Positions 2,770-23,400 of a DNA stretch of 64,000 nt are shown piece by piece. Location: NCBI RefSeq assembly GCF_024298765.1, contig NZ_CP101210.1. The stretch is one strand, 5' to 3'. The translations under genes and the position numbers were made by a program. This DNA comes from Escherichia coli. Its GTDB lineage: Bacteria > Pseudomonadota > Gammaproteobacteria > Enterobacterales > Enterobacteriaceae. Numbering within the stretch: position 1 is the first letter of the stretch; each line of letters opens with the position of its first letter. The notes under the pieces were generated by a model. It was not told where the DNA came from. It saw nothing but the letters and a program-made list of their open reading frames with translations, and did not search any database.

Positions 2770-3557
2770 TGCTGGCAGCCAGGGCACCAGTAAAACGGGC
2801 GAGATGACAGCGTGGTTTTCTCAATGATGCCGCCACAGCGTTCGCACAGTTCGCCATCACGATGAAAAACCTTAAAGCGAAACAGCGCCCCATGATGCTT
2901 ATTCTCATCCACCTGCCCCCGCGTAGCGTAGGAAAATCGAGGAATATCCAGTAACGCGTGTGCGAGTGCATCCAGTTGCGCCGCATTGAGATCTTTCGCT
3001 TTATGATTTCCAGTCAACCCAACCTGCCAGAGGATCTCCACCCGCAAATAATTGCCAAGCCCAGCCAGAAACGCCTGATCGAGCAGTAATCCAGCAAACT
3101 GACGGTTACGAAAGCGCGGCGACAATAACCGTTCCTTTACCACCTCCGGCGTCAGATTCGGATCCAGCACATCGGGGCCGACTCGTTGTAAAAACGGATG
3201 CGTGATCAGTTGTTCCGGCGTCAACATCTCAATATCCGAGGCGCTATAAAGCAGAATAGTTTTGTCAACCGTTTGCAGTTTTACCCGCAATACTCGCATA
3301 GTCTGCGGCTCTTCGCCGGTATCAACCACGCGCCAGACGCCGTAAAGCTGATTATGGCTGTAGAGCGTTAAGTCGTTGGAAAAATGAGTTAACAACGCCT
3401 TACCACGCGTTTCCACATGGGTAACGTGTTGACCGATAAGTTGTGATTGATAAGGTTTTAACTGCGGGAAGGCAAACCAGACATCAGTTAGTGGTTTGCC
3501 TTTGATCGCCGCCTCCAGGTTATCCGCTGCACGGCGGATCTCCGGGCCTTCAGGCAT
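2766..3557 (-). CDS. nei: endonuclease VIII (Fpg/Nei family DNA glycosylase)
   Basis: 263 aa, N-terminal MPEGPEIRR and C-terminal zinc-finger CxxC...CxxC. Confidence 0.9.
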
Positions 3558-3592
3558 GGTGATATCCTTTTTTCATTCTTTATTAAACGGGG

Positions 3593-4327
3593 TTATGCTG
3601 CGACAACAATCCCCTTTTCGGCAAATGTAGAGCGTAGTCGGCGGGCGAATGCCAGTGCGTGCTCGCCGTCGCCATGCAGGCAGACCGTTTGCGCCGTGAC
3701 CGTTGCCCATTCGCCGGTGATGCTTTTGACTCTGCCGTGTTGCACCATCTCCAGCGTTTGCGCCAGCGCCTGTTCTTCGTTTTCAATCAACGCGCCTGGC
3801 TGGCTTCGCGGCACCAGCGAACCGTCTGCCTGATAACCGCGATCGGCAAACACTTCCTCGCGCGTTGTCAGGCCATATTGCTTGCCTGCACGAATCAGCT
3901 CGCTTCCTGCCAGCCCGACGAGAATCAATGCCGGATCGCAAGCGTATACCGCTCTGGCGATGGCGTCTGCCAGTTGTGCCTCTTTCGCTGCCTGGTTGTA
4001 TAACATGCCGTGAGGTTTGACATGACGCATAACACCGCCTTGCGCACGGGCAATCGTTGCCAGCGCGCCAATTTGATACAGCGTCTGGGCGTAAACGGTT
4101 TCTGGCGGCAGCTGCATGACGCTGCGCCCAAAATTTTCCCTGTCGGGAAAACTCGGGTGAGCGCCAATCGCAACACCATTTTTTATTGCTTCACGCACGC
4201 AAGCCTGCATGGTTTGCGCATCGCCTGCATGAAATCCACAGGCAATATTGGCAGAGGAAACCAGCGTTAATAGCTCTGCGTCGCTGGCATAGCCTTCGCC
4301 CAGATCGGCGTTCAGGTCAATTTTCAT
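3593..4327 (-). CDS. pxpA: 5-oxoprolinase subunit A (LamB/YcsF family)
   Basis: 244 aa, [13 protein letters not shown]-terminus; in pxpB-pxpC-pxpA cluster. Confidence 0.85.
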
Positions 4328-5921: not shown

Positions 5922-6665
5922 TTATGCAGGATTAGGAATATCAATAAAGGTCACATCAAGATCGGTATTTTCATTCAGCCACTCGCTCAATGCGCGAATA
6001 CCACCGCGTTCAGTGGCATGGTGACCCGCAGCATAAAAATGCAATCCCTGCTCGCGGGCTGAATGAATGGTCTGTTCAGAAACTTCGCCAGTAATAAAAG
6101 CATCCACGCCAAAACGCGCGGCGCTATCGATAAAACTTTGCCCGCCGCCCGTGCACCAGGCGACGCGCTGGACCACCTCAGGTCCGGTATCGCCACACCA
6201 TAACGGCTTACGTCCCAGACGCGCTTCAATCCAGGAGGCCAGTTCCAGTCCCGGCACAGGCATGGTCAGTTCGCCCCACGGCACCAACGGCTCAATTTCG
6301 CCCATGACCGTGATCCCCAGTAACGCCGCCAGCTGTGCGTTATTGCCCAGCTCAGGATGTGCGTCAAGCGGCAAATGCCAGCCATACAGGTTGATATCAT
6401 TCGCCAGCAACGTTTTTAAACGGTTACGCTTCATGCCGCGAATGACCGGGGATTCGCCTTTCCAGAAGTAGCCATGATGCACAATGACCGCATCCGCGCC
6501 CAGACGCACCGCTTCATCGAGCAAAGCCTGGCTGGCAGTGACACCGGTAACAATTTTTTGCACCGTCTCTTTGCCTTCCACCTGCAAACCATTCGGCGCG
6601 TAATCACTAATCGCCGCGCTGTTCAGTTTTTCGTTAATCAGTTGTTCCAGTTCGGTGTTTTTCAT
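5922..6665 (-). CDS. ybgI: Nif3-family metal-binding protein
   Basis: 247 aa, recognised by sequence. Confidence 0.8.
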   Translation of the reverse strand: MKNTELEQLINEKLNSAAISDYAPNGLQVEGKETVQKIVTGVTASQALLDEAVRLGADAVIVHHGYFWKGESPVIRGMKRNRLKTLLANDINLYGWHLPLDAHPELGNNAQLAALLGITVMGEIEPLVPWGELTMPVPGLELASWIEARLGRKPLWCGDTGPEVVQRVAWCTGGGQSFIDSAARFGVDAFITGEVSEQTIHSAREQGLHFYAAGHHATERGGIRALSEWLNENTDLDVTFIDIPNPA

Positions 6666-6752
6666 CTTCGCGCCTTCCGTATTCTGATAGCTACACCGTT
6701 AACATAGCGTTACCTCGCCTGTTCGTCGATAGCCAATCTTTTGACATATTAA

Positions 6753-8417
<1,665 letters not shown>

Positions 8418-10461: not shown

Positions 10462-11439
10462 GGGCAAGATTACGAAAGCCCGCTCCCCGTAAGGACTGAC
10501 GCCAGGTAGTTTCTGTCCATAGCTGCCCTTTCTATTCAAACGTGAAATCAATAAGTTCATCAGGGACATCACAAACAATATGAAGACGGGTTTCTTCTCT
10601 GCCGTGACTCTTTTCACTAATTGAGTAACTGTCGTGCTCTGGATTATTTAATTCTTTCAGCGGAAATTTTTCCTCAAAGGCTTTATTAAGCCGCCACCTG
10701 ATTTCCTTTTACAGCGAATAAATAATCACCTCCCTGTTTTTGTATCTTCTCTGCAATATCTTTCTGGCAACTCATCGCATCAGTTGTGATGATTTTTCCT
10801 TTAATATCCAGCATGTTAAGAAGTTCAGGGATAGCTGTAATTTCATTGGATTTCTCATCCGTCCTGATCTGTCCGATGACCAGACTGTGCATTGTTGAGA
10901 ACGCACTAATGACATGAATCGCTCCCCTGCGGCGACTCTTGTCATAAGAATGCCGGAGCGTTTTTCCATCAATTGCAATAACGTCTTTATCATCTGAAGA
11001 ATGGCAGTCACGCATCCAGTTAATAAAGCACTCGTGAAATTTTGAAGGACTGATACAGGATACAACTCTGGCGATGGTATCGTGAACAGGAATACCATTT
11101 TAAAAATCACCATATTGTTTTAAAAAATCGAGATGTGTTTCCCCAAAATCCTCTATATCTTCCCAACCATCTGCACCAGAAATAACGGCACAAATAGTCA
11201 ACAGTAGAATATCCGACAATTTATGTTCCACTTTTCCAGGATTGTCTGTAATCGGGAATAACAGAAATATGTTCCATCAATTTTTTAAGTACCATTTTGT
11301 TCTCCTTAATTATGTAAGGAGTATTTGATCATGTATAAGCAATAAAAAACAGCTTTAGGTAATGAGGAATATCTCAATTTTTAAACATAAAATGCGAATT
11401 GTCTAGTACAAAAAAGCAGCGTTACGTGATCTTTCCCTG
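10462..11439 (-). mobile_element. degenerate ISAs1-family (H-repeat) copy with internal deletion and frameshift
   Basis: Both ends match the ends of the intact copy at 13087..14388 (CAGGGxAAGATTACG... and ...CGTTACGTGATCTTTCCCTG); about 320 bp missing from the 3' part; ORF fragments 10686..11015 and 10772..11113. Confidence 0.7.
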
Positions 11440-13086: not shown

Positions 13087-14388
13087 ACATGGGAACCCAG
13101 GGAAAGATTACGAAAGCCCGCTCCCAGCAAGGACTGACGCCAGATAGTTTCTGTCCATGGCTGCTTTTCGCATCTTACGTCTTAACCCTGCCTTGAATAC
13201 CTTATCATTCGTCAAAATATTAATAGCGATGTGCCGTATCCCTGAAAATAATTCTGCTGCATTTCCTCTTCTTATTTTGCAGTCGTCTTCATTCATTACC
13301 ACGTCCAGACGCCAGTGCAGCTTATTCTCCACGTGCCAGTGGTTTCGGATTGCTGTGGCGAACTTCTCTGCGGTTAAATCAGCAGAACTGATATAATATC
13401 TGACCGTCATTTCTGGCTCTTTCTTTTGTTCTGCTATTATTGACCGAAAGGAGACTGCCACGCATAATTTCTTCAGACCTTTCCATTCAAACGTGAAATC
13501 AATAAGTTCATCAGGGACATCGCAAACAATATGAAGACGGATTTCTTCTCTGCCGTGACTTTTTTCACTAATTGCGTAACTGTCATGCTCTGGATTATTT
13601 AATTCTTTCAGTGGGAATTTTTCCTCAAAGGCTTTATTAAGCCGCCCCTGATTTCCTTTTACAGCGAATAAATAATCACCGCCCTGTTTTTGTATCTTCT
13701 CTGCGATATCTTTCTGGCACCCCATCGCATCAGTTGTGATAATTTTTCCTTTAATATCCAACATGTTAAGAAGTTCAGGGATAGCTGTGATCTCATTGGA
13801 TTTCTCATCCGTCCTGATCTGTCCGATGACCAGACTGTGCATTGTTGAGAACGCACTAATGACATGAATCGCTCCCCTGCGGCGACTCTTGTCATAAGAA
13901 TGCCGGAGCGTTTTTCCATCAATTGCAATAACGTCTTTATCATCTGAAGAATGGCAGTCACGCATCCAGTTAATAAAGCACTCGTGAAATTTTGCAGGAC
14001 TGATACAGGATACAACTCTGGCAATGGTATCGTGAACAGGAATACCATTTTCAAAATCACCATATTGCTTCAAAAAATCGAGATGTGTTTCCCCAAAATC
14101 CTCTATATCTTCCCAGCCTTCTGCACAAGAAATAACGGCACAAATAGTCAACAGTAGAATATCCGACAATTTATGTTCCACTTTCCAGGCTTGTCTGTAA
14201 TCGGGGATAATAGAAATATGTTCCATCAATTTTTTAAGTTCCATTTTGTTCTCCTTAATTATGTAAGGAGTATTTGACCATGTATACGCAATAAAAAACA
14301 GCTTCAGGTAATGAGGAATATCTCAATTTTTAAACATAAAATGCGAATTATTTAGTACAAAAAAGCAGCGTTACGTGATCTTTCCCTG
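13087..14388 (-). mobile_element. ISAs1-family insertion sequence (H-repeat), apparently intact
   Basis: About 1.3 kb; imperfect terminal inverted repeats; single 378-aa transposase ORF. Confidence 0.8.
13108..14244 (-). CDS. ISAs1-family transposase (H-repeat-associated protein)
   Basis: 378 aa, [32 protein letters not shown]..., matches Rhs-associated H-rpt proteins. Confidence 0.9.
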
Positions 14389-14395
14389 GTTAATC

Positions 14396-14725
14396 ATGGC
14401 TGAACACGATATTACGCCAGAAATCACCATTTCCAAAACACAGCGCCGCTATAAAGTCGGCTATGTCAGAGCCCGCCACATAAACAGCAAAACCTACATG
14501 ACCACGTACTACTCACGACACCCCAGCCTGAACCTCAAGGGCGACTGGCTGAAAGAGGCCGGATTTGATACCGGGCGGGGTGTCACGGTGAAGATTTCGG
14601 AGGGGTGCCTGACCATCATCGCTGACAGTGACGAGGTGCAGGAACTGCGGGAGGAACTTTATCAGGTTAAACAGGTGGTTAAGGGGATGCGGAGCGGGAT
14701 GTTTAGTGTGCTGAACGATAATTAA
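14396..14725 (+). CDS. SymE-family (type I toxin-like, AbrB-fold) protein
   Basis: 109 aa; LKGDWLKEAGFDTGRGVTVKISEGCLTIIA resembles the SymE core [30 protein letters not shown] (from memory); start trimmed from ORF 14375. Confidence 0.7.
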   Translation: MAEHDITPEITISKTQRRYKVGYVRARHINSKTYMTTYYSRHPSLNLKGDWLKEAGFDTGRGVTVKISEGCLTIIADSDEVQELREELYQVKQVVKGMRSGMFSVLNDN

Positions 14726-14776: not shown

Positions 14777-15145
14777 TTATTCAGGAAATTTTCTATTTTT
14801 ATATGATGACCATAAGTGAGTGATCGACCAAGAGTTTTCCTTTCCGAGTACAAAACTTTTGGAGATTATCTCAATATCATCAGATATACGCGAAGATATT
14901 TCAGAATTATTAATCACCCTGAATGAGTATTTAAATGCCTTTTCTCGCAAGGAATCAATAAACTCAATATCATCATCCTGAAAACTTTCCTTATCTAATG
15001 AATTAAACTCACTCATCCAGCAATCATCAAACTCCGGTTCATCTCTTGAGTCTAATGCACTATCAACATTTAATGATTTAAGAAAATCAAAAAATGACGG
15101 GGTGGATAAACAGTTATCAATTTCAATTAGCTTATTATTAATCAT
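14777..15145 (-). CDS. putative immunity protein of orphan Rhs toxin
   Basis: Acidic ~122 aa protein; ATG overlaps toxin stop in TGATG arrangement. Confidence 0.55.
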   Translation of the reverse strand: MINNKLIEIDNCLSTPSFFDFLKSLNVDSALDSRDEPEFDDCWMSEFNSLDKESFQDDDIEFIDSLREKAFKYSFRVINNSEISSRISDDIEIISKSFVLGKENSWSITHLWSSYKNRKFPE

Positions 15146-15790
15146 CACATTAACCCTTGTCCTTTGAGCCAAACCTCTATTAAATCAACAGCCTTGGATG
15201 GTGTCACATTAGTACCTAGCGTATAAGTTCCATTTGGAGATTTAACATCAACTCTGATGTCATCTAATTTTGAATACGCTTTTCTGTAAGCATCAAATAA
15301 CTCTTTATCCGAACCAAGGAAATCACCTTGTCTTGGACCTATCACATCTCGTTCCGCATGATGTAAACGCCAGTGATTATGTTCTGGATTTTCTCCTCTA
15401 GGGAATAATGTTGGGCGAGTTTTATCAGATCGGGAAACTTCAAACGGACGTCCTTTAGATTTACGAACCGCAGGAACATGATGTCCAGATTCACTCACGC
15501 CCATACACTTCTTCGTTAATCCAAGGGGATCGATCCAGCTTAACGGATTCGGTGCATAAGCATACAGGTTTAACCCGCCTCTTAGCCCTATCGGGTCCGT
15601 TACCATGAACCGCCCGACATCCGGATCATAGTACCTGTGCAGATTGTAATGCAGCCCCGTTTCCCTGTCGAGGTACTGTCCCTGGTAGCGCAGGTTCTGC
15701 TCCACCCCGCCGTGGTCCTTCTCCTGTATCGTGTTACCCCAGACCTGATACCCCGTCTCCCACACGATTTTCCCGTCACTGTCCGTCATC
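15145..15790 (-). pseudogene. orphan rhs C-terminal fragment: ~90 core codons + DPLGL + ~120-aa toxin tip with GHH signature
   Basis: ORF 15145..15825; core part near-identical to main rhs (MTDSDGKIVWETGYQVWGN...DPIGLRGGLNLYAYAPNPLSWIDPLGL); 5' end cut by ISAs1. Confidence 0.65.
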
Positions 15791-15792
15791 TC

Positions 15793-17084
15793 CAGGGCAA
15801 GATTACGAAAGCCCGCACCCCGCAAGGACTGACGCCAGATAGTTTCTGTCCATGGCTGCTTTTCGCATCTTACGTCTTAACCCTGCCTTGAATACCTTAT
15901 CATTCGTCAAAATATTAATAGCGATGTGCCGTATCCCTGAAAATAATTCTGCTGCATTTCCTCTTCTTATTTTGCAGTCGTCTTCATTCATTACCACGTC
16001 CAGACGCCAGTGCAGCTTATTCTCCACGTGCCAGTGATTTCGGATCGCTGTGGCGAACTTTTCTGCGGTTAAATCAGCAGAACTGATATAATATCTGACC
16101 GTCATTTCTGGCTCTTTCTTTTGTTCTGCTATTATGGACCGAAAGGAGACTGCCACGCATAATTTCTTCAGTCCTTTCCATTCAAACGTGAAATCAATAA
16201 GTTCATCAGGGACATCACAAACAATATGAAGACGGGTTTCTTCTCTGCCGTGACTCTTTTCACTAATTGAGTAACTGTCGTGCTCTGGATTATTTAATTC
16301 TTTCAGCGGAAATTTTTCCTCAAAGGCTTTATTAAGCCGCCACCTGATTTCCTTTTACAGCGAATAAATAATCACCTCCCTGTTTTTGTATCTTCTCTGC
16401 AATATCTTTCTGGCAACTCATCGCATCAGTTGTGATGATTTTTCCTTTAATATCCAGCATGTTAAGAAGTTCAGGGATAGCTGTAATTTCATTGGATTTC
16501 TCATCCGTCCTGATCTGTCCGATGACCAGACTGTGCATTGTTGAGAACGCACTAATGACATGAATCGCTCCCCTGCGGCGACTCTTGTCATAAGAATGCC
16601 GGAGCGTTTTTCCATCAATTGCAATAACGTCTTTATCATCTGAAGAATGGCAGTCACGCATCCAGTTAATAAAGCACTCGTGAAATTTTGCAGGACTGAT
16701 ACAGGATACAACTCTGGCAATGGTATCGTGAACAGGAATACCATTTTCAAAATCACCATATTGCTTCAAAAAATCGAGATGTGTTTCCCCAAAATCCTCT
16801 ATATCTTCCCAGCCTTCTGCACCAGAAATAACGGCACAAATAGTCAACAGTAGAATATCCGACAATTTATGTTCCACTTTCCAGGCTTGTCTGTAATCGG
16901 GGACAATAGAAATATGTTCCATCAATTTTTTAAGTTCCATTTTGTTCTCCTTAATTATGTAAGGAGTATTTGATCATGTATAAGCAATAAAAAACAGCTT
17001 TAGGTAATGAGGAATATCTCAAATCTTAAACATAAAATGCCAATTATTTAGTACAAAAAAGTAGCGTTACGTGATCTTTCCCTA
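15793..17084 (-). mobile_element. ISAs1-family copy, transposase frameshifted
   Basis: Same ends as the copy at 13087..14388; ORF split into 16332..16940 and 15803..16156; 1-bp difference (gccgccacctgattt vs gccgcccctgattt). Confidence 0.75.
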
Positions 17085-17089
17085 AAACG

Positions 17090-17555
17090 CAGACCCAGTT
17101 GTGCATAGTACACATGGTACGCAACAGCCTGCGGTTCGTGACGTGGAAAGACTATAAAGCGGTAACCCGTGACCTGAAACAGGTTTACCGCGCGGCCACG
17201 GAAGAAGGCGTGTTGCAGGCGCTGGATGCGTTCGGGAAGGAATGGGATGCACGGTACCCGCAGATAAGTCGCAGCTGGCGGGCAAACTGACCGAATGTTG
17301 CCACCTTCTTCGTGTACCCGGAGGCGATCCGAAAGGTTATCTACACCACTAACGCAATCGAATCGCTGAATAGCGTCATCAGACATGCGATAAAGAAAAG
17401 GAAAGTGTTCCCGACAGATGAATCGGTGAAAAAAGTGGTGTGGCTGGCTATCCAGTCAGCCTCACAGAAATGGACGATGCCACTTCAGGACTAGCGGATA
17501 GCCATGAGTCGCTTTATTATCGAGTTCGGTGACCGCCTTGACGGTCACTTCTGAG
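17090..17555 (+). pseudogene. IS256-family (Mutator-type) transposase, 3' remnant with frameshift
   Basis: ORFs 17099..17290 and 17312..17494 carry ...VHMVRNSLRFVTWKDYKAV... and ...IYTTNAIESLNSVIRHAIKKRKVFPTDESVKKVVWLAIQSASQKWTMP... Confidence 0.6.
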
Positions 17556-17619
17556 AAAGGCATTTACACAGAATGATGGACAGGCTCAACGGGAAGGCTA
17601 CATGCCTTCCCATTTTATA

Positions 17620-17946
17620 TTAATCACCCGGCTTCTCCCAACATTTTATCTTTTCTATTTCTCTCTCAATATCATCCATATCATCATCTCCAAGATCGGT
17701 ATTAAAATTTTCAGTAATAACCCTTCTTATTTCAGCCAACCGATGTGTAATATTTTTATCATCAATAAATTTAGTGGTTTCTTTAAAGTAAGAATTCAAC
17801 AATTTATCATCAATAACGTTCTGCTCTATACCATTGAAATAATACCTTGCAATATTCTTAAGTGATATCAATATGTACTCTACCTCACTTAGAATATAAA
17901 GGGCATCCTTCCCGGGTATATTAATTACATCATTGTTTTTATTCAT
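17620..17946 (-). CDS. putative immunity protein of orphan Rhs toxin
   Basis: 108 aa ORF starting 1 nt after the orphan toxin stop. Confidence 0.55.
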   Translation of the reverse strand: MNKNNDVINIPGKDALYILSEVEYILISLKNIARYYFNGIEQNVIDDKLLNSYFKETTKFIDDKNITHRLAEIRRVITENFNTDLGDDDMDDIEREIEKIKCWEKPGD

Positions 17947-17947
17947 A

Positions 17948-19735
17948 TTATTTACGCCGAGTTATTTTTGCATTATCAGAAAGAACAATATCACCTTTCA
18001 CAGTCAATTCATCTATATGGTATCGAGGGTTTGTTACCCACTCTAATTGCTCGTTAGGTACATCTGTTTCCACATAATCTCTACCTTTCCCACGACCTAT
18101 TTGATATTTCGCCTCTATGTCTACTTGACTGAGTGGTTTTTTATTCGCAGGTTCCAAATATACACGACCGTTATCATGCGCCTTAATTATCCCACTTTCA
18201 GCAATCGCATTTGAACCTTTACGATTAGTATAATGCCGCACACGAGTAGTTCCATTACAGAGCTCTTTTTTTAATCCGAGTGGATCAATATATTTCAGCG
18301 GATTAGGCGCATAAGCATATAAGTTCAACCCACCCGCCAGCCCTATCGGATCCGTTACAATGAACCGCCCGACATCCGGATCATAGTACCTGTGCAGATT
18401 GTAATGCAGCCCTGTTTCCCTGTCGAGGTACTGTCCCTGGTAGCGCAGGTTCTGCTCCACCCTGCCGTGGTCCTTCTCCTGTATCGTGTTACCCCAGACC
18501 TGATACCCCGTCTCCCACACGATTTTCCCGTCACTGTCCGTCATCTCTTCCGGCGCGCCGTTCACATCCGTGTGAAAATACAGTATCCGGTTCGGGCCCT
18601 CTTTGCCCGCCTTATCCACCCGCGCCAGCGGTTCATAACTCCCCGGGTCCCTGTAGATGTACAGGCTGTCTGTTCCCTCCGGCCTGCTCTCCTGCGCCAG
18701 CCGCATTCCGTCCCATAAAAATGCCGTCCGGTTGTACGGTTTACCGTCAGGGCTGATGTGCTGTTTTTCCGTCCGCCTCCCCAGCGCATCGTACACATAC
18801 CGGTACGTTCCCCGCGCTGTCGTCACTTCCACCATCCGGTGTTCCGCATCATAACGGTAACTCTGCGTGCCGCTCCGCCCCTCCTTTTCCACCGCACGGC
18901 CAAATTCGTCGTAACGGTAGTGCACACCACGGTAAGACATCAGCCGGTTGAACGGCACCACGCTGTTTTCTGCCGTGGCCCTTTCCCCCGCGCGCCGCCC
19001 CAGCAGGTTTCCCGCCGCGTCGTACTGCCAGCTCGCCAGATACCCCTCATCCTCCGAGCGGCACGCCGTGATGCGCCCCGTGGGGTCGTAGAAGTAATCC
19101 GTTTCCCCCCGCCGGCTGTGCCGCGTCTTCAGCAGTTCATCCTCGCCACTGTAGCTGTACTGCCGGTCCGTGAACGTCTCCGGTACCACCCCGCGCATCC
19201 CGCTGTATGTCTCCCTGCGCTTCAGCCGCCCGGCGGGGTCGTAAAGCTGCCGCGTGCTCAGTCGCCCCTGACTTCTGAGCACTTCACGGTGCAGGGCGTC
19301 ACGAGTGAACTCGCTGATGACCTCCCGGTCCAGATTTATCTGCTGGAGATGGCCGCTGCCGTAGTACAGATGACGCTGCGTTCTGCCGTCCGGAAAGGTG
19401 GTGGCTGTCCGGTTGCTGAGTTCATCGTACTGATGGGTCAGGACGCCCTGCGCCGTCTCCTCAGTCAGCATCCGCCCCAGTCTGTCGTAACTGAAACGGA
19501 TAATCTCCGGTGCGTCTGTTTCCCCGGCATCCGACCGTCGGCGGCGGATTTCCAGTAACTGGTCTGCCGCATCATGGACGTATTCCGTACGGCTATCGGC
19601 TGTCTCCTTTGCCGTGAGCCGGCCCGCCGCATCACGTGCCAGCCGGTGGCGGATTTCACCGCCCCGGTCCCCGGTGAACACCACTTCCGTGACCGCGTTC
19701 AGCGCGTTGTAGCGGTACGTCTGGCGGCAGCCGTC
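17948..19735 (-). pseudogene. orphan rhs fragment: ~490 core codons + ~105-aa alternative toxin tip, 5'-truncated
   Basis: ORF 17948..19753; homology to main rhs starts at ...CRQTYRYNALNAV; 18392-19735 is near-identical to 20910-22253. Confidence 0.75.
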
Positions 19736-19764
19736 GTGCTGCCAGCGCAGCATCTGCCCAACCG

Positions 19765-19978
19765 CAGCGACACGCCGGTGATCAAAATCAGCGCCAAATG
19801 GCTGAGAGAAGCGGGATTTGAGATCGGCACGGGCGTTACCGTGAAGATCTCGGAAGGCTGCCTGATCCTGCTTGCAGATAACAACGGAGTACAGGAACTG
19901 CGCAGGGAACTTTATCAGGTTAAACAGTCTGTTAAGGGGATGCGGAACGGGATGTTTAGTATGCTGAACGATAATTAA
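19765..19978 (+). pseudogene. SymE-family gene, C-terminal fragment
   Basis: ...IKISAKWLREAGFEIGTGVTVKISEGCLILLADNNGVQELRRELYQVKQSVKGMRNGMFSMLNDN homologous to 14396..14725; N-terminus lost at the orphan rhs junction. Confidence 0.6.
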
Positions 19979-20043: not shown

Positions 20044-20424
20044 CTAAATCAATCTTTTTTTTAATTCCCTTATTTCAGGAGTTAATGCAAAACTGTCTTC
20101 TAAAGATTCGTCATCCAAGGCCCAGTAATTAATAAGATCTATATGATTTTTATAATTATCAAGCAGAGTGTTGAGTGCTTTTACAATAACTTTATCTGAA
20201 GGAGGTACTCCAGAAGATAATAAATCATTACAGACATCAAGGGCTAAAGTCATTAATTCATTCTTCCCTTTTTGTGAGTAGCCATTATTTAAATATGCAG
20301 CAATATATTTACTTAACCACTCTTTAGTTCGATATTTTTCAGGCAGTTCATAAGCCCAATCTTGTGTAAACTTATCACTCACTGGTACACCAAGTTCACT
20401 ACAGATTTTATCTATTTCATTCAT
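20044..20424 (-). CDS. putative immunity protein of the main Rhs toxin
   Basis: 126 aa ORF 18 nt downstream of rhs stop; position-based call. Confidence 0.55.
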   Translation of the reverse strand: MNEIDKICSELGVPVSDKFTQDWAYELPEKYRTKEWLSKYIAAYLNNGYSQKGKNELMTLALDVCNDLLSSGVPPSDKVIVKALNTLLDNYKNHIDLINYWALDDESLEDSFALTPEIRELKKRLI

Positions 20425-20441
20425 ATATATCCTTCATTATT

Positions 20442-23400
20442 TTAGTTGTCGTGTGATGAATTGAATGGGAACGATGTACGTACAGAACCGTCGGGTTTTA
20501 CAACAACCCTTGCCATATCTGGAACTACCTCTGTCCCATCAGGTAAATAACCTCGACTTTTTATATTTGTAGGCAATGGCACATCATGCACACCTGGTCC
20601 TTTTTTGGCAACAGAAGCAATAAAATCAGCAGCAGAATTATCATCGAGATATTGTCCAACTTGATGACCTTTATTTCTGGCACGATCAATTAACTGATTT
20701 GGTTTCATTTTCTGTCCGTGTTCAGAAAAGGTGTGACCGTATGTAGGCTTACTTTTTGGATTTCCCCATTTGAAGTCAGATTTAGGACACAATCCAAGTG
20801 GGTCGATCCATGACAGTGGATTAGGTGCATACTGATATAAGTTTAACCCGCCTCTCAGCCCTATCGGGTCCGTTACCATGAACCGCCCGACATCCGGATC
20901 ATAGTACCTGTGCAGATTGTAATGCAGTCCCGTTTCCCTGTCGAGGTACTGTCCCTGGTAGCGCAGGTTCTGCGCCACCCCGCCGTGGTCCTTCTCCTGT
21001 ATCGTGTTACCCCAGACCTGATACCCCGTCTCCCACACGATTTTCCCGTCACTGTCCGTCATCTCTTCCGGCGCGCCGTTCACATCCGTGTGAAAATACA
21101 GTATCCGGTTCGGGCCCTCTTTGCCCGCCTTATCCACCCGCGCCAGCGGTTCATAACTCCCCGGGTCCCTGTAGATGTACAGGCTGTCTGTTCCCTCCGG
21201 CCTGCTCTCCTGCGCCAGCCGCATTCCGTCCCATAAAAATGCCGTCCGGTTGTACGGTTTACCGTCAGGGCTGATGTGCTGTTTTTCCGTCCGCCTCCCC
21301 AGCGCATCGTACACATACCGGTACGTTCCCCGCGCTGTCGTCACTTCCACCATCCGGTGTTCCGCATCATAACGGTAACTCTGCGTGCCGCTCCGCCCCT
21401 CCTTTTCCACCGCACGGCCAAATTCGTCGTAACGGTAGTGCACACCACGGTAAGACATCAGCCGGTTGAACGGCACCACGCTGTTTTCTGCCGTGGCCCT
21501 TTCCCCCGCGCGCCGCCCCAGCAGGTTTCCCGCCGCGTCGTACTGCCAGCTCGCCAGATACCCCTCATCCTCCGAGCGGCACGCCGTGATGCGCCCCGTG
21601 GGGTCGTAGAAGTAATCCGTTTCCCCCCGCCGGCTGTGCCGCGTCTTCAGCAGTTCATCCTCGCCACTGTAGCTGTACTGCCGGTCCGTGAACGTCTCCG
21701 GTACCACCCCGCGCATCCCGCTGTATGTCTCCCTGCGCTTCAGCCGCCCGGCGGGGTCGTAAAGCTGCCGCGTGCTCAGTCGCCCCTGACTTCTGAGCAC
21801 TTCACGGTGCAGGGCGTCACGAGTGAACTCGCTGATGACCTCCCGGTCCAGATTTATCTGCTGGAGATGGCCGCTGCCGTAGTACAGATGACGCTGCGTT
21901 CTGCCGTCCGGAAAGGTGGTGGCTGTCCGGTTGCTGAGTTCATCGTACTGATGGGTCAGGACGCCCTGCGCCGTCTCCTCAGTCAGCATCCGCCCCAGTC
22001 TGTCGTAACTGAAACGGATAATCTCCGGTGCGTCTGTTTCCCCGGCATCCGACCGTCGGCGGCGGATTTCCAGTAACTGGTCTGCCGCATCATGGACGTA
22101 TTCCGTACGGCTATCGGCTGTCTCCTTTGCCGTGAGCCGGCCCGCCGCATCACGTGCCAGCCGGTGGCGGATTTCACCGCCCCGGTCCCCGGTGAACACC
22201 ACTTCCGTGACCGCGTTCAGCGCGTTGTAGCGGTACGTCTGGCGGCAGCCGTCCGGATTTATCTGCTCCGCCAGACGGTCCAGCACGTCATGGCGGAACC
22301 GGTAGCTTTCTCCGTTCTCGTTTGTCAGCGTGACCAGACGCCCGTAAGCATCGTACCCGAACGCCGTCCTGCGCCCCGTCGCGTCTGTCCGGCTGCGCAC
22401 CCGGCCCTGCCCGTCCCGCTGCCAGCGCGTTATCCTCCCCATCGGGCTGGTGTACTTCACCAGCCTGCCCGCCGCGTCCGACTGGTAATTCACCGTGCGG
22501 CCGTCCGCCAGTATCACCTCCGTCAGGTGGCCGCTGTCGTCATACCCGTAGCGCGTGCTGTGGCTCTGCGCGTCTGTCATCCGTATCAGCCGCGTGCGTT
22601 CGTCGTAGAACCAGGCCGTCTGCGAGCCGGAACAGTCCGTGTGCCGCATGAGCTGCCCGTCTTCGTTCCACTGAAGGTATTTATTCCCCCCGCGCGCATC
22701 GGTTATCTGCACCACCTGGCCGTGGCGGTCATACTGATACCGGGTGTTCTGCTGCAGCGGGTCGGTCACCGCAAGAAGATTGCCGCGTTCATCGTACTCA
22801 CAGCACCAGCTGTTCCCCGCCGCGTCCACCTCCGTTTCCGGCTGGTGCCACACCGGGTGCCACTGTGTCTGTGCCACCCGCCCCAGCGGGTCGTGCGTCT
22901 CCGTGATATGCCCCTGCCGGTCATACACATAGCGCCATTTGCCGCCCTGCGCATCGGTCATTCCCAGTAACAGCCGTTCTTCGTCGCTCCAGCGGAACGT
23001 CGTCACCTGCCCGGCTTCGTCCTGGTACGCCGTCACCTGATTCTGCGCGTCCCACTGATGATAACGCGTGCGCCCCAGCCCGTCCGTCACGCACAGCCTG
23101 CGTGACGCCAGGCTCCACGCCAGCCGGTACTGTTCACCGCTGTCCGTGTGGTGCCCCGTCACCCGCCACGCTGCGTCATCCGGGCCTTCATACCAGCTCC
23201 ACTGGTAATAATACCCTTCGCCGCCCGGCTGGCGGTGCAGGGTCATGCAGTGGTTTTCGTCGTAAGCAAACTCGCGCAGCAGGTGTCCCGTGCTGTCGTA
23301 CACGCCGTTCAGGTCGCCGGCCTCGTCATAGCGGTAACGACGCAGCAGTAAAGGAGCCGTCTCAGGGAAATGCTGATAAATCTGTGTCACCCGCCGGGGA

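Follow-up and report, generated by a model that had tools for sequence, protein, structure and literature searches.

In Salmonella, recombination between a main and an orphan rhs gene was shown experimentally to activate the orphan Rhs toxin (PMC3967940), and the DPxGL motif at the end of the Rhs core is the site of the autoproteolysis that releases the C-terminal tip (PMC8661411, PMC11606950). Two tips with ADP-ribosyltransferase (ART) activity are of particular relevance here. Tre23, the tip of the Photorhabdus laumondii Rhs protein Plu0353, was assigned to ART-HYD1 (PMC8661411; PDB 7PQ5); its toxicity needs H8 and Y33, it ADP-ribosylates helix 44 of the 23S rRNA and as a consequence the GTPase activity of EF-G is blocked, and it is neutralised through binding by Tri23 (PMC8661411). 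TreTu, the tip of the Salmonella Rhs-main protein, whose immunity protein is TriTu, ADP-ribosylates EF-Tu at D21 (PDB 7ZHL/7ZHM; PMC9825190) and belongs with TreX and Tre1 to the R-S-E clade (PMC9825190, PMC11606950). The immunity proteins Tri23, TriTu and TriX all neutralise by direct binding (PMC8661411, PMC9825190, PMC11606950). Here we describe a module in Escherichia coli (RefSeq assembly GCF_024298765.1, contig NZ_CP101210.1) that consists of a 5'-truncated rhs fragment ending in a 107-amino-acid (aa) tip of the Tox-ART-HYD1 family and of a 108-aa open reading frame (ORF), its putative immunity gene. The window referred to below is the whole stretch of 64,000 nucleotides that was analysed. 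We read the module as an orphan HYD1 ADP-ribosyltransferase/immunity cassette at the rhsC locus that is deployed by recombination and probably arrests translation, with a probability of about 0.8; that it is an orphan cassette of an ART-fold toxin and its immunity gene is, taken by itself, highly probable. The module comprises the following features.

18272..19753, minus strand: 5'-truncated rhs core fragment bearing the tip, within a 601-aa ORF (17948..19753)
18272..18286, minus strand: DPLGL, the end of the Rhs core (DPxGL autoproteolysis motif), residues 490-494 of the 601-aa ORF
17948..18271, minus strand: toxin tip, 107-aa Tox-ART-HYD1 domain and stop codon, by its match to Pfam PF15633
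17620..17946, minus strand: predicted cognate immunity gene, 108 aa, directly 3' of the toxin stop codon, with homologues that pair with HYD1 toxins

The TIGR03696 Rhs_assc_core and Pfam RHS matches on the 601-aa ORF run to residue 494. A Pfam scan found no PAAR, DUF6531 or N-terminal delivery region in this ORF, so the orphan would not be exported as it stands, and the RefSeq annotation of E. coli strain 104 labels it an RHS pseudogene 'missing N-terminus'. At the nucleotide level, window positions 18273..19735 (1463 bp) and nucleotides 2848-4310 of the full-length main rhs gene located upstream share 98.4% identity, and this homology stops exactly at the DPLGL codons (18273). The tail that follows, KKELCNGTTRVRHYTNRKG...AKITRRK as read from the translation of the window ORF, therefore differs completely from that of the main toxin. 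A first-pass annotation of this DNA had said as much and had called the segment an orphan tip, which is borne out by the homology to the main core, by the missing delivery region and by a natural fusion of main and orphan genes in another strain (see below); its estimate of about 105 aa for the tip needs correction to 107. The acidic 108-aa ORF that it had placed 1 nt after the stop codon is also there: its ATG (17944-17946) and the toxin TAA (17948-17950) are separated by the single base 17947, and the encoded protein has an isoelectric point (pI) of 4.64, with 23 D+E versus 15 K+R. The tip is basic (pI 9.41). The G+C content falls from 61% (rhs core) through 38% (tip) to 30% (immunity gene), in line with what an acquired rhs tip/immunity cassette should show. 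The module thus has the features by which Koskiniemi et al. (2014) defined orphan modules, a fragment lacking the N-terminus that is homologous to the 3' core of the upstream rhs gene and has a distinct tip and immunity gene. An 87-aa ORF antisense to the immunity gene (17602..17865, plus strand) is of low complexity and was regarded as an artefact of the AT-rich sequence.

The tip had been left unassigned in the first-pass annotation, which had suggested profile searches and structure prediction as checks; both now place it in a known family. PF15633 (Tox-ART-HYD1) matches residues 11-99 of the tip over the full profile (1-97 of 97) with 55.9 bits and an E value of 7e-15, more than twice the curated gathering cut-off of 25 bits, and RefSeq names the copies that are called as separate coding sequences 'HYD1 signature containing ADP-ribosyltransferase family protein'. 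The signature residues of the family, H, [RK], [FY] and [DE] (Zhang et al. 2012, PMC3482391), are present as H13 (codon 18233-18235), R17/K18, Y38 (18158-18160) and E88 (18008-18010). Relatives with 58-79% identity are found in Kluyvera, Serratia, Klebsiella, Samsonia, Pantoea, Lonsdalea, Mangrovibacter, Pseudomonas, Denitromonas, Snodgrassella and Clostridium. In an alignment with 25 homologues the residues I23, I29, Y38, E40, A42, K45, K55, Y56, D70, P82 and R106 are invariant, while those conserved in at least 90% of the sequences include H13, T15, R17, G19 and E88. The AlphaFold2 (AF2) model generated from the homologue alignment (mean predicted local distance difference test score, pLDDT, 89.2) has the split beta-sheet fold of ADP-ribosyltransferases, with strands at residues 8-15, 36-41, 65-72, 76-80, 87-92 and 102-104, and places H13 on β1, Y38 on β2 and E88 on β5, just where ARTs have been described to carry their H-Y-E triad (PMC9825190, PMC13285283). 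The tip is thus predicted to be an NAD+-dependent ADP-ribosyltransferase of the Tox-ART-HYD1 family, H-Y-[EDQ] clade, with H13, Y38 and E88 as the likely catalytic residues.

The assignment of the 108-aa ORF as the cognate immunity gene, also proposed in the first-pass annotation, is supported by the conservation of the pair in other bacteria. A homologue of the immunity gene directly follows a HYD1 toxin in Photorhabdus, where the toxin is the tip of a full-length PAAR-Rhs protein and the gap is again 1 nt (locus L001), and follows orphan HYD1 toxins in Acinetobacter (L013) and Pseudomonas cerasi (L015). In Clostridium frigidicarnis (L017, 2020-2860) the immunity homologue aligns with an hhalign probability of 100% and 53% identity, next to a toxin with about 62% identity, and in a pair of metagenomic origin (L020) the immunity protein is only 26% identical and the 1-nt spacing is kept. 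Since E. coli, Photorhabdus, Acinetobacter, Pseudomonas and Clostridium, five genera that span two phyla, all keep the two genes adjacent, the arrangement is not due to chance, and the 108-aa ORF can be considered, on the evidence of gene order and homology, the putative cognate immunity gene of the HYD1 tip. The coupling between the two families may not be absolute, as the neighbours of a distant immunity relative, P0190, carry no recognisable HYD1 domain (L018, 2511-3284; L019, 165-1088, the latter with an hhalign probability of 0.2%); the immunity family may also pair with other, or very divergent, toxins. The C. frigidicarnis pair adjoins another toxin module, Tox-HNH-EHHH. The conservation between Enterobacterales and Clostridium is unusually high for a polymorphic toxin pair and, if true, at 62-67% for the toxin and about 53% for the immunity protein, would imply a recent transfer of a ready-made cassette across phyla.

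While the toxin is known in kind, the immunity protein belongs to an undescribed family. No significant sequence match to the 108-aa protein was found in Pfam, NCBIfam or PDB, and a structure search with its model returned only generic helical-bundle folds, so that here the label 'unassigned' of the first-pass annotation stands. The AF2 model (pLDDT 84) is all-alpha with four helices, and the alignment of homologues shows an invariant acidic block, LGDDDMDDIER (residues 85-95), and a near-invariant W103. Apart from one E. coli copy at 99%, the homologues are 100-116 aa long with 43-87% identity and occur in Citrobacter, Pantoea, Photorhabdus, Pseudomonas, Lonsdalea, Brenneria, Mangrovibacter and Acinetobacter. 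An exhaustive profile search found the family in 209 representative clusters (50% identity) among 1.84 billion, nearly all of whose members are single-domain proteins of about 100-120 aa, and none of the 44 sampled proteins (the window protein and 43 relatives) matches any Pfam model. An immunity family linked to Tox-ART-HYD1, Imm-My6CBD, has been described as alpha+beta with an E/R/F/W signature (Zhang et al. 2012, PMC3482391). It shares with the E. coli protein its location next to HYD1 toxins but is recognised by Pfam, whereas the E. coli protein is predicted to be all-alpha and carries the LGDDDMDDIER block; going by the predicted fold, the family of the 108-aa ORF does not fit Imm-My6CBD.

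Among 5426 complete E. coli genomes, 72 contain the 691-bp region including the tip and the immunity gene, in every case in the chromosome and in 71 of them with at least 99% identity. The orphan arrangement, recognised by the presence of the upstream junction, occurs in 58 of these 72 genomes. E. coli HCM-28C-2 has an identical tip and the same immunity gene behind an intact PAAR-Rhs protein of 1544 aa. The first 940 aa of this fused Rhs are identical to the main Rhs of the window, its C-terminal 590 aa match the orphan with 99.7% identity, and it follows the orphan at all seven positions where the main and orphan cores differ; the locus has neither the main tip, nor the immunity gene of the main tip, nor SymE. 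This is the product expected of homologous recombination between the main gene and the orphan, and corresponds to the recombined fusion described by Koskiniemi et al. (2014), seen here as an intact ORF by genome comparison only. In strain 2014C-3338 a frameshift interrupts the same fusion. As judged from these sequences, recombination of this kind probably takes place at the E. coli rhsC locus, with the main PAAR-Rhs as the presumptive recombination partner and delivery vehicle of the orphan tip. The strains with the orphan and those with the fusion represent a natural before/after pair that records the switching of tips at rhsC.

The locus is the E. coli rhsC site, located between ybfA-kdp and ybgA-phrB. 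The order is kdp, ybfA, a truncated DcrB/Eag gene, the main rhs gene, its immunity gene, a truncated SymE gene, the HYD1 orphan with the 108-aa ORF, remnants of IS256 and ISAs1, a second orphan module, another SymE gene, ISEc1, an HNH/EndoVII toxin module, ybgA and phrB. This layout agrees with the RefSeq annotation of strain 104. The features closest to the module are these.

20442..25100, minus strand: main prePAAR/PAAR-Rhs of 1552 aa, whose tip is unlike that of the orphan; its first 500 aa match Pfam PAAR_motif and DUF6531
20044..20424, minus strand: putative immunity gene of the main Rhs tip, by position
19736..19978, plus strand: 5'-truncated SymE-family gene (Pfam SymE_toxin, E 5.5e-11; RefSeq strain 104)
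17099..17494, plus strand: IS256-family transposase remnant, the downstream boundary of the module (Pfam Transposase_mut, positions 253-377 of 379)

The N-terminus of the main Rhs is prePAAR-like. In the Pfam scan no family was assigned to its tip (20442-20790, minus strand) or to that of the second orphan (15145-15825, minus strand), nor to the ORFs downstream of them (20044-20424 and 14777-15172, minus strand, respectively). The truncated SymE gene abuts the 5' end of the orphan and marks the cassette junction. A full-length SymE copy (14375-14725, plus strand) contains the Rfam antisense small RNA isrA (14467-14595, minus strand, 117.6 bits), and the SymE-family type I toxin genes are convergent to the rhs tip/immunity modules. 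The order Rhs-HYD1, immunity gene, SymE recurs in Photorhabdus (L001, SymE at 6451-6771), and in P. cerasi (L015) SymE genes at 1709-2167, 3546-3911 and 6504-6899 are interleaved with Rhs orphans, which suggests that SymE travels with rhs cassettes or marks their boundary. The IS256-family remnant, directly downstream of the immunity gene, is split over two broken ORFs and is annotated in RefSeq as 'transposase, incomplete'; several copies or fragments of ISAs1 (H-repeat) lie between the orphan modules (10686-11113, 13108-14244 and 15803-16940, minus strand). These insertion sequence (IS) elements may have removed the SymE gene that follows the HYD1 module in Photorhabdus. A G+C-rich hairpin (GGGAAGGC...GCCTTCCC, 17591-17611) is located just beyond the stop codon of the immunity gene; its T-run is on the plus strand, and it may therefore terminate the transcript of the IS remnant and not that of the immunity gene.

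The only characterised relative that we found, Tre23, is distant. HMMER searches of PDB with the tip alone or with a 25-sequence profile gave nothing relevant, including no match to chain 7pq5_L, and part of Tre23 (this same chain) was matched only after 13 core residues had been added to the query. A reconstructed 53-aa Tre23 fragment used as query against protein databases yielded no candidates. Tre23-like tips were recovered from Photorhabdus and Xenorhabdus genomes by means of a degenerate DNA pattern, and the complete tip and downstream ORF used for comparison are those of P. caribbeanensis (L004, 3730-4239 and 4221-4556), where the Tre23-like tip is an orphan located behind a stop codon, with its own 111-aa ORF downstream. 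The E. coli and Tre23-like tips share 33% identity over 52 N-terminal residues (BLASTP, E 2e-7, a remote relationship) and 31% in the full-length MAFFT alignment; hhalign aligned 85 columns with a probability of 85.6% and with H, Y and E paired. The Tre23-like tip is longer, 129 aa versus 107, with insertions and a C-terminal extension, and scores 19.1 bits on PF15633, under the cut-off, versus 55.9 bits for the E. coli tip. On these grounds the E. coli tip belongs to the mainstream of the family, which spans E. coli, Salmonella, Klebsiella, Serratia, Pantoea, Pseudomonas, Acinetobacter and Clostridium, and Tre23, the one characterised ART-HYD1 toxin that we found, is an outlier that is atypical of it. 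The ORF following the Tre23-like tip, Tri23-like by position only, is unrelated to the E. coli immunity protein (hhalign probability 0.7%).

The proposed course of events is the following. Recombination across the 1.46-kb common core would fuse the tip to the main PAAR-Rhs, with loss of the tip of the main gene and of the immunity gene that goes with it. The fused Rhs would be loaded on the spike of a type VI secretion system (T6SS) and would cleave itself at DPLGL, freeing the tip in the cytoplasm of the target cell, where it would ADP-ribosylate a component of the translation apparatus and, most likely, arrest translation; the leading candidate is the 23S rRNA, by analogy with Tre23. The immunity protein would bind the toxin tightly, 1:1, over the active-site cleft, in the manner of Tri23, TriTu and TriX, and would not remove the adduct. 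RNA or the ribosome as the target is a tentative proposal, at somewhat under even odds, and the target of Tre23 can be carried over to the E. coli tip only as a conjecture: helix 44 of the 23S rRNA exactly is rather unlikely to be the site. It is conceivable, if somewhat doubtful, that the core HYD1 subfamily hits a target other than helix 44, perhaps another structured RNA or a translation factor, and that the LGDDDMDDIER loop of the all-helical immunity protein blocks the cleft for NAD+ and substrate, where it may imitate a phosphate backbone.

Several points weigh against the recombination-deployed, translation-arresting cassette. The Eag/DcrB gene upstream of the main prePAAR-Rhs (25119-25319, minus strand) is a C-terminal remnant (Pfam DcrB positions 77-126 of 127), annotated by RefSeq as incomplete in every strain inspected, and no vgrG or T6SS gene was found in the window, where the flanks are kdp, ybfA, ybgA and phrB. 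The intact Eag gene and linked VgrG/T6SS genes that characterise T6SS prePAAR Rhs effector loci are thus missing within the window, and this casts doubt on the loading of Rhs from the rhsC locus onto a T6SS, in the source strain a conjectural step. Promoter-like matches upstream of the immunity gene (8 versus 4.2 +/- 2.2 expected from shuffled sequence) are not above chance. The literature yielded no experimental study and no activity data on any member of the mainstream HYD1 subfamily. The distance of Tre23 (its low profile score, insertions, extension and unrelated following ORF) means that the target of the E. coli tip may differ. Finally, the best structural match of the tip model is TreTu, which modifies EF-Tu and not RNA, and an ART fold may serve a pure NADase, of which Tne5 is an example (PMC13285283).

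The match to TreTu bears on the alternative that survives best, an ADP-ribosyltransferase with a protein target, such as EF-Tu (TreTu) or FtsZ (Tre1, TreX), instead of rRNA. We consider it unlikely: those three toxins are of the R-S-E clade while the tip has H-Y-E, no sequence similarity to TreTu was detected in the PDB profile search, and, as a weak argument, a basic tip and an acidic immunity loop suit a nucleic-acid substrate. Another possibility is that the module works in situ as a type II toxin-antitoxin (TA) pair that regulates growth, with the toxin expressed from promoters inside the rhs ORF. Expression of the tips of Salmonella main and orphan rhs genes does start from promoters inside these genes, and the tips act as TA modules (PMC7043789); the 601-aa orphan ORF has its own ATG at 19753, and promoter-like hexamers are present inside the tip (18215-18186 and 18001-17972, minus strand); but such matches are no commoner than in the shuffled sequence, and the candidate ATG sits in junction sequence beyond the rhs homology, which makes this explanation improbable. 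That the module is a decaying relic, neither expressed nor deployable, would agree with an Eag/DcrB gene reduced to its last roughly 50 profile positions, the IS256 and ISAs1 fragments on its flanks and the frameshift in one of the fused genes, and is decidedly improbable because dozens of E. coli genomes carry both ORFs intact and 100% identical, the intact full-length Rhs of HCM-28C-2 has exactly this tip, and every catalytic and family-invariant residue has been kept. Killing by cofactor depletion through an NAD(P)+ glycohydrolase (NADase), as in the Tne families that include the ART-fold Tne5, is very improbable, given the intact conserved H-Y-E triad typical of transferases, the K/E pocket without this triad in Tne5, and the lack of NADase activity of Tre23, the only characterised homologue found, in the assay of the Tne5 study (PMC13285283). 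Tne5 was also rejected as a relative of the tip, for its K/E pocket and since HYD1 is not mentioned in that paper.

The significance of the finding is modest. The tip is a canonical Tox-ART-HYD1 domain, already named by RefSeq and with Salmonella candidates catalogued (PMC10469887, PMC12288458), and the label of an unknown toxin gives way to a specific, testable enzymology, that of a predicted H-Y-E ADP-ribosyltransferase. The immunity family, all-helical by prediction, with its acidic motif and about 209 clusters at 50% identity, is new and unannotated.

The comparison with known systems can be stated as follows. The E. coli tip and Tre23 are both Rhs C-terminal tips located after DPxGL, belong to ART-HYD1, the H-Y-[EDQ] clade, share the motifs HYTN+xG...SG...G+VY...IGRG...LE(W/Y)...NP with an H-to-Y spacing of 25 residues in both, and are directly followed by a small immunity gene. 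TreTu, with 16% identity to the E. coli tip, uses an active site of the R-S type (R6, S25) in place of H-Y-E, and TriTu forms a beta-sheet lid, whereas the E. coli immunity protein is predicted to be all-helical. The Salmonella SPI-6 candidate effectors named 'RhsA-Tox-ART-HYD1' and 'PAAR-RhsA-Tox-ART-HYD1' (PMC10469887, PMC12288458) have, by description only, the same Pfam domain, full-length PAAR-Rhs and orphan fragments, and a small domainless ORF that follows; these bioinformatic candidates lie in a T6SS island, while the E. coli module is at rhsC. The rhs-main/rhs-orphan system of Salmonella Typhimurium resembles the E. coli locus in that a full-length rhs gene is followed by a 5'-truncated rhs fragment, which carries a tip and an immunity gene of its own (PMC3967940, PMC7043789). 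The toxin domain and the chromosomal site differ, and the recombination across the common core that deploys the orphan tip in Salmonella has its E. coli equivalent in HCM-28C-2.

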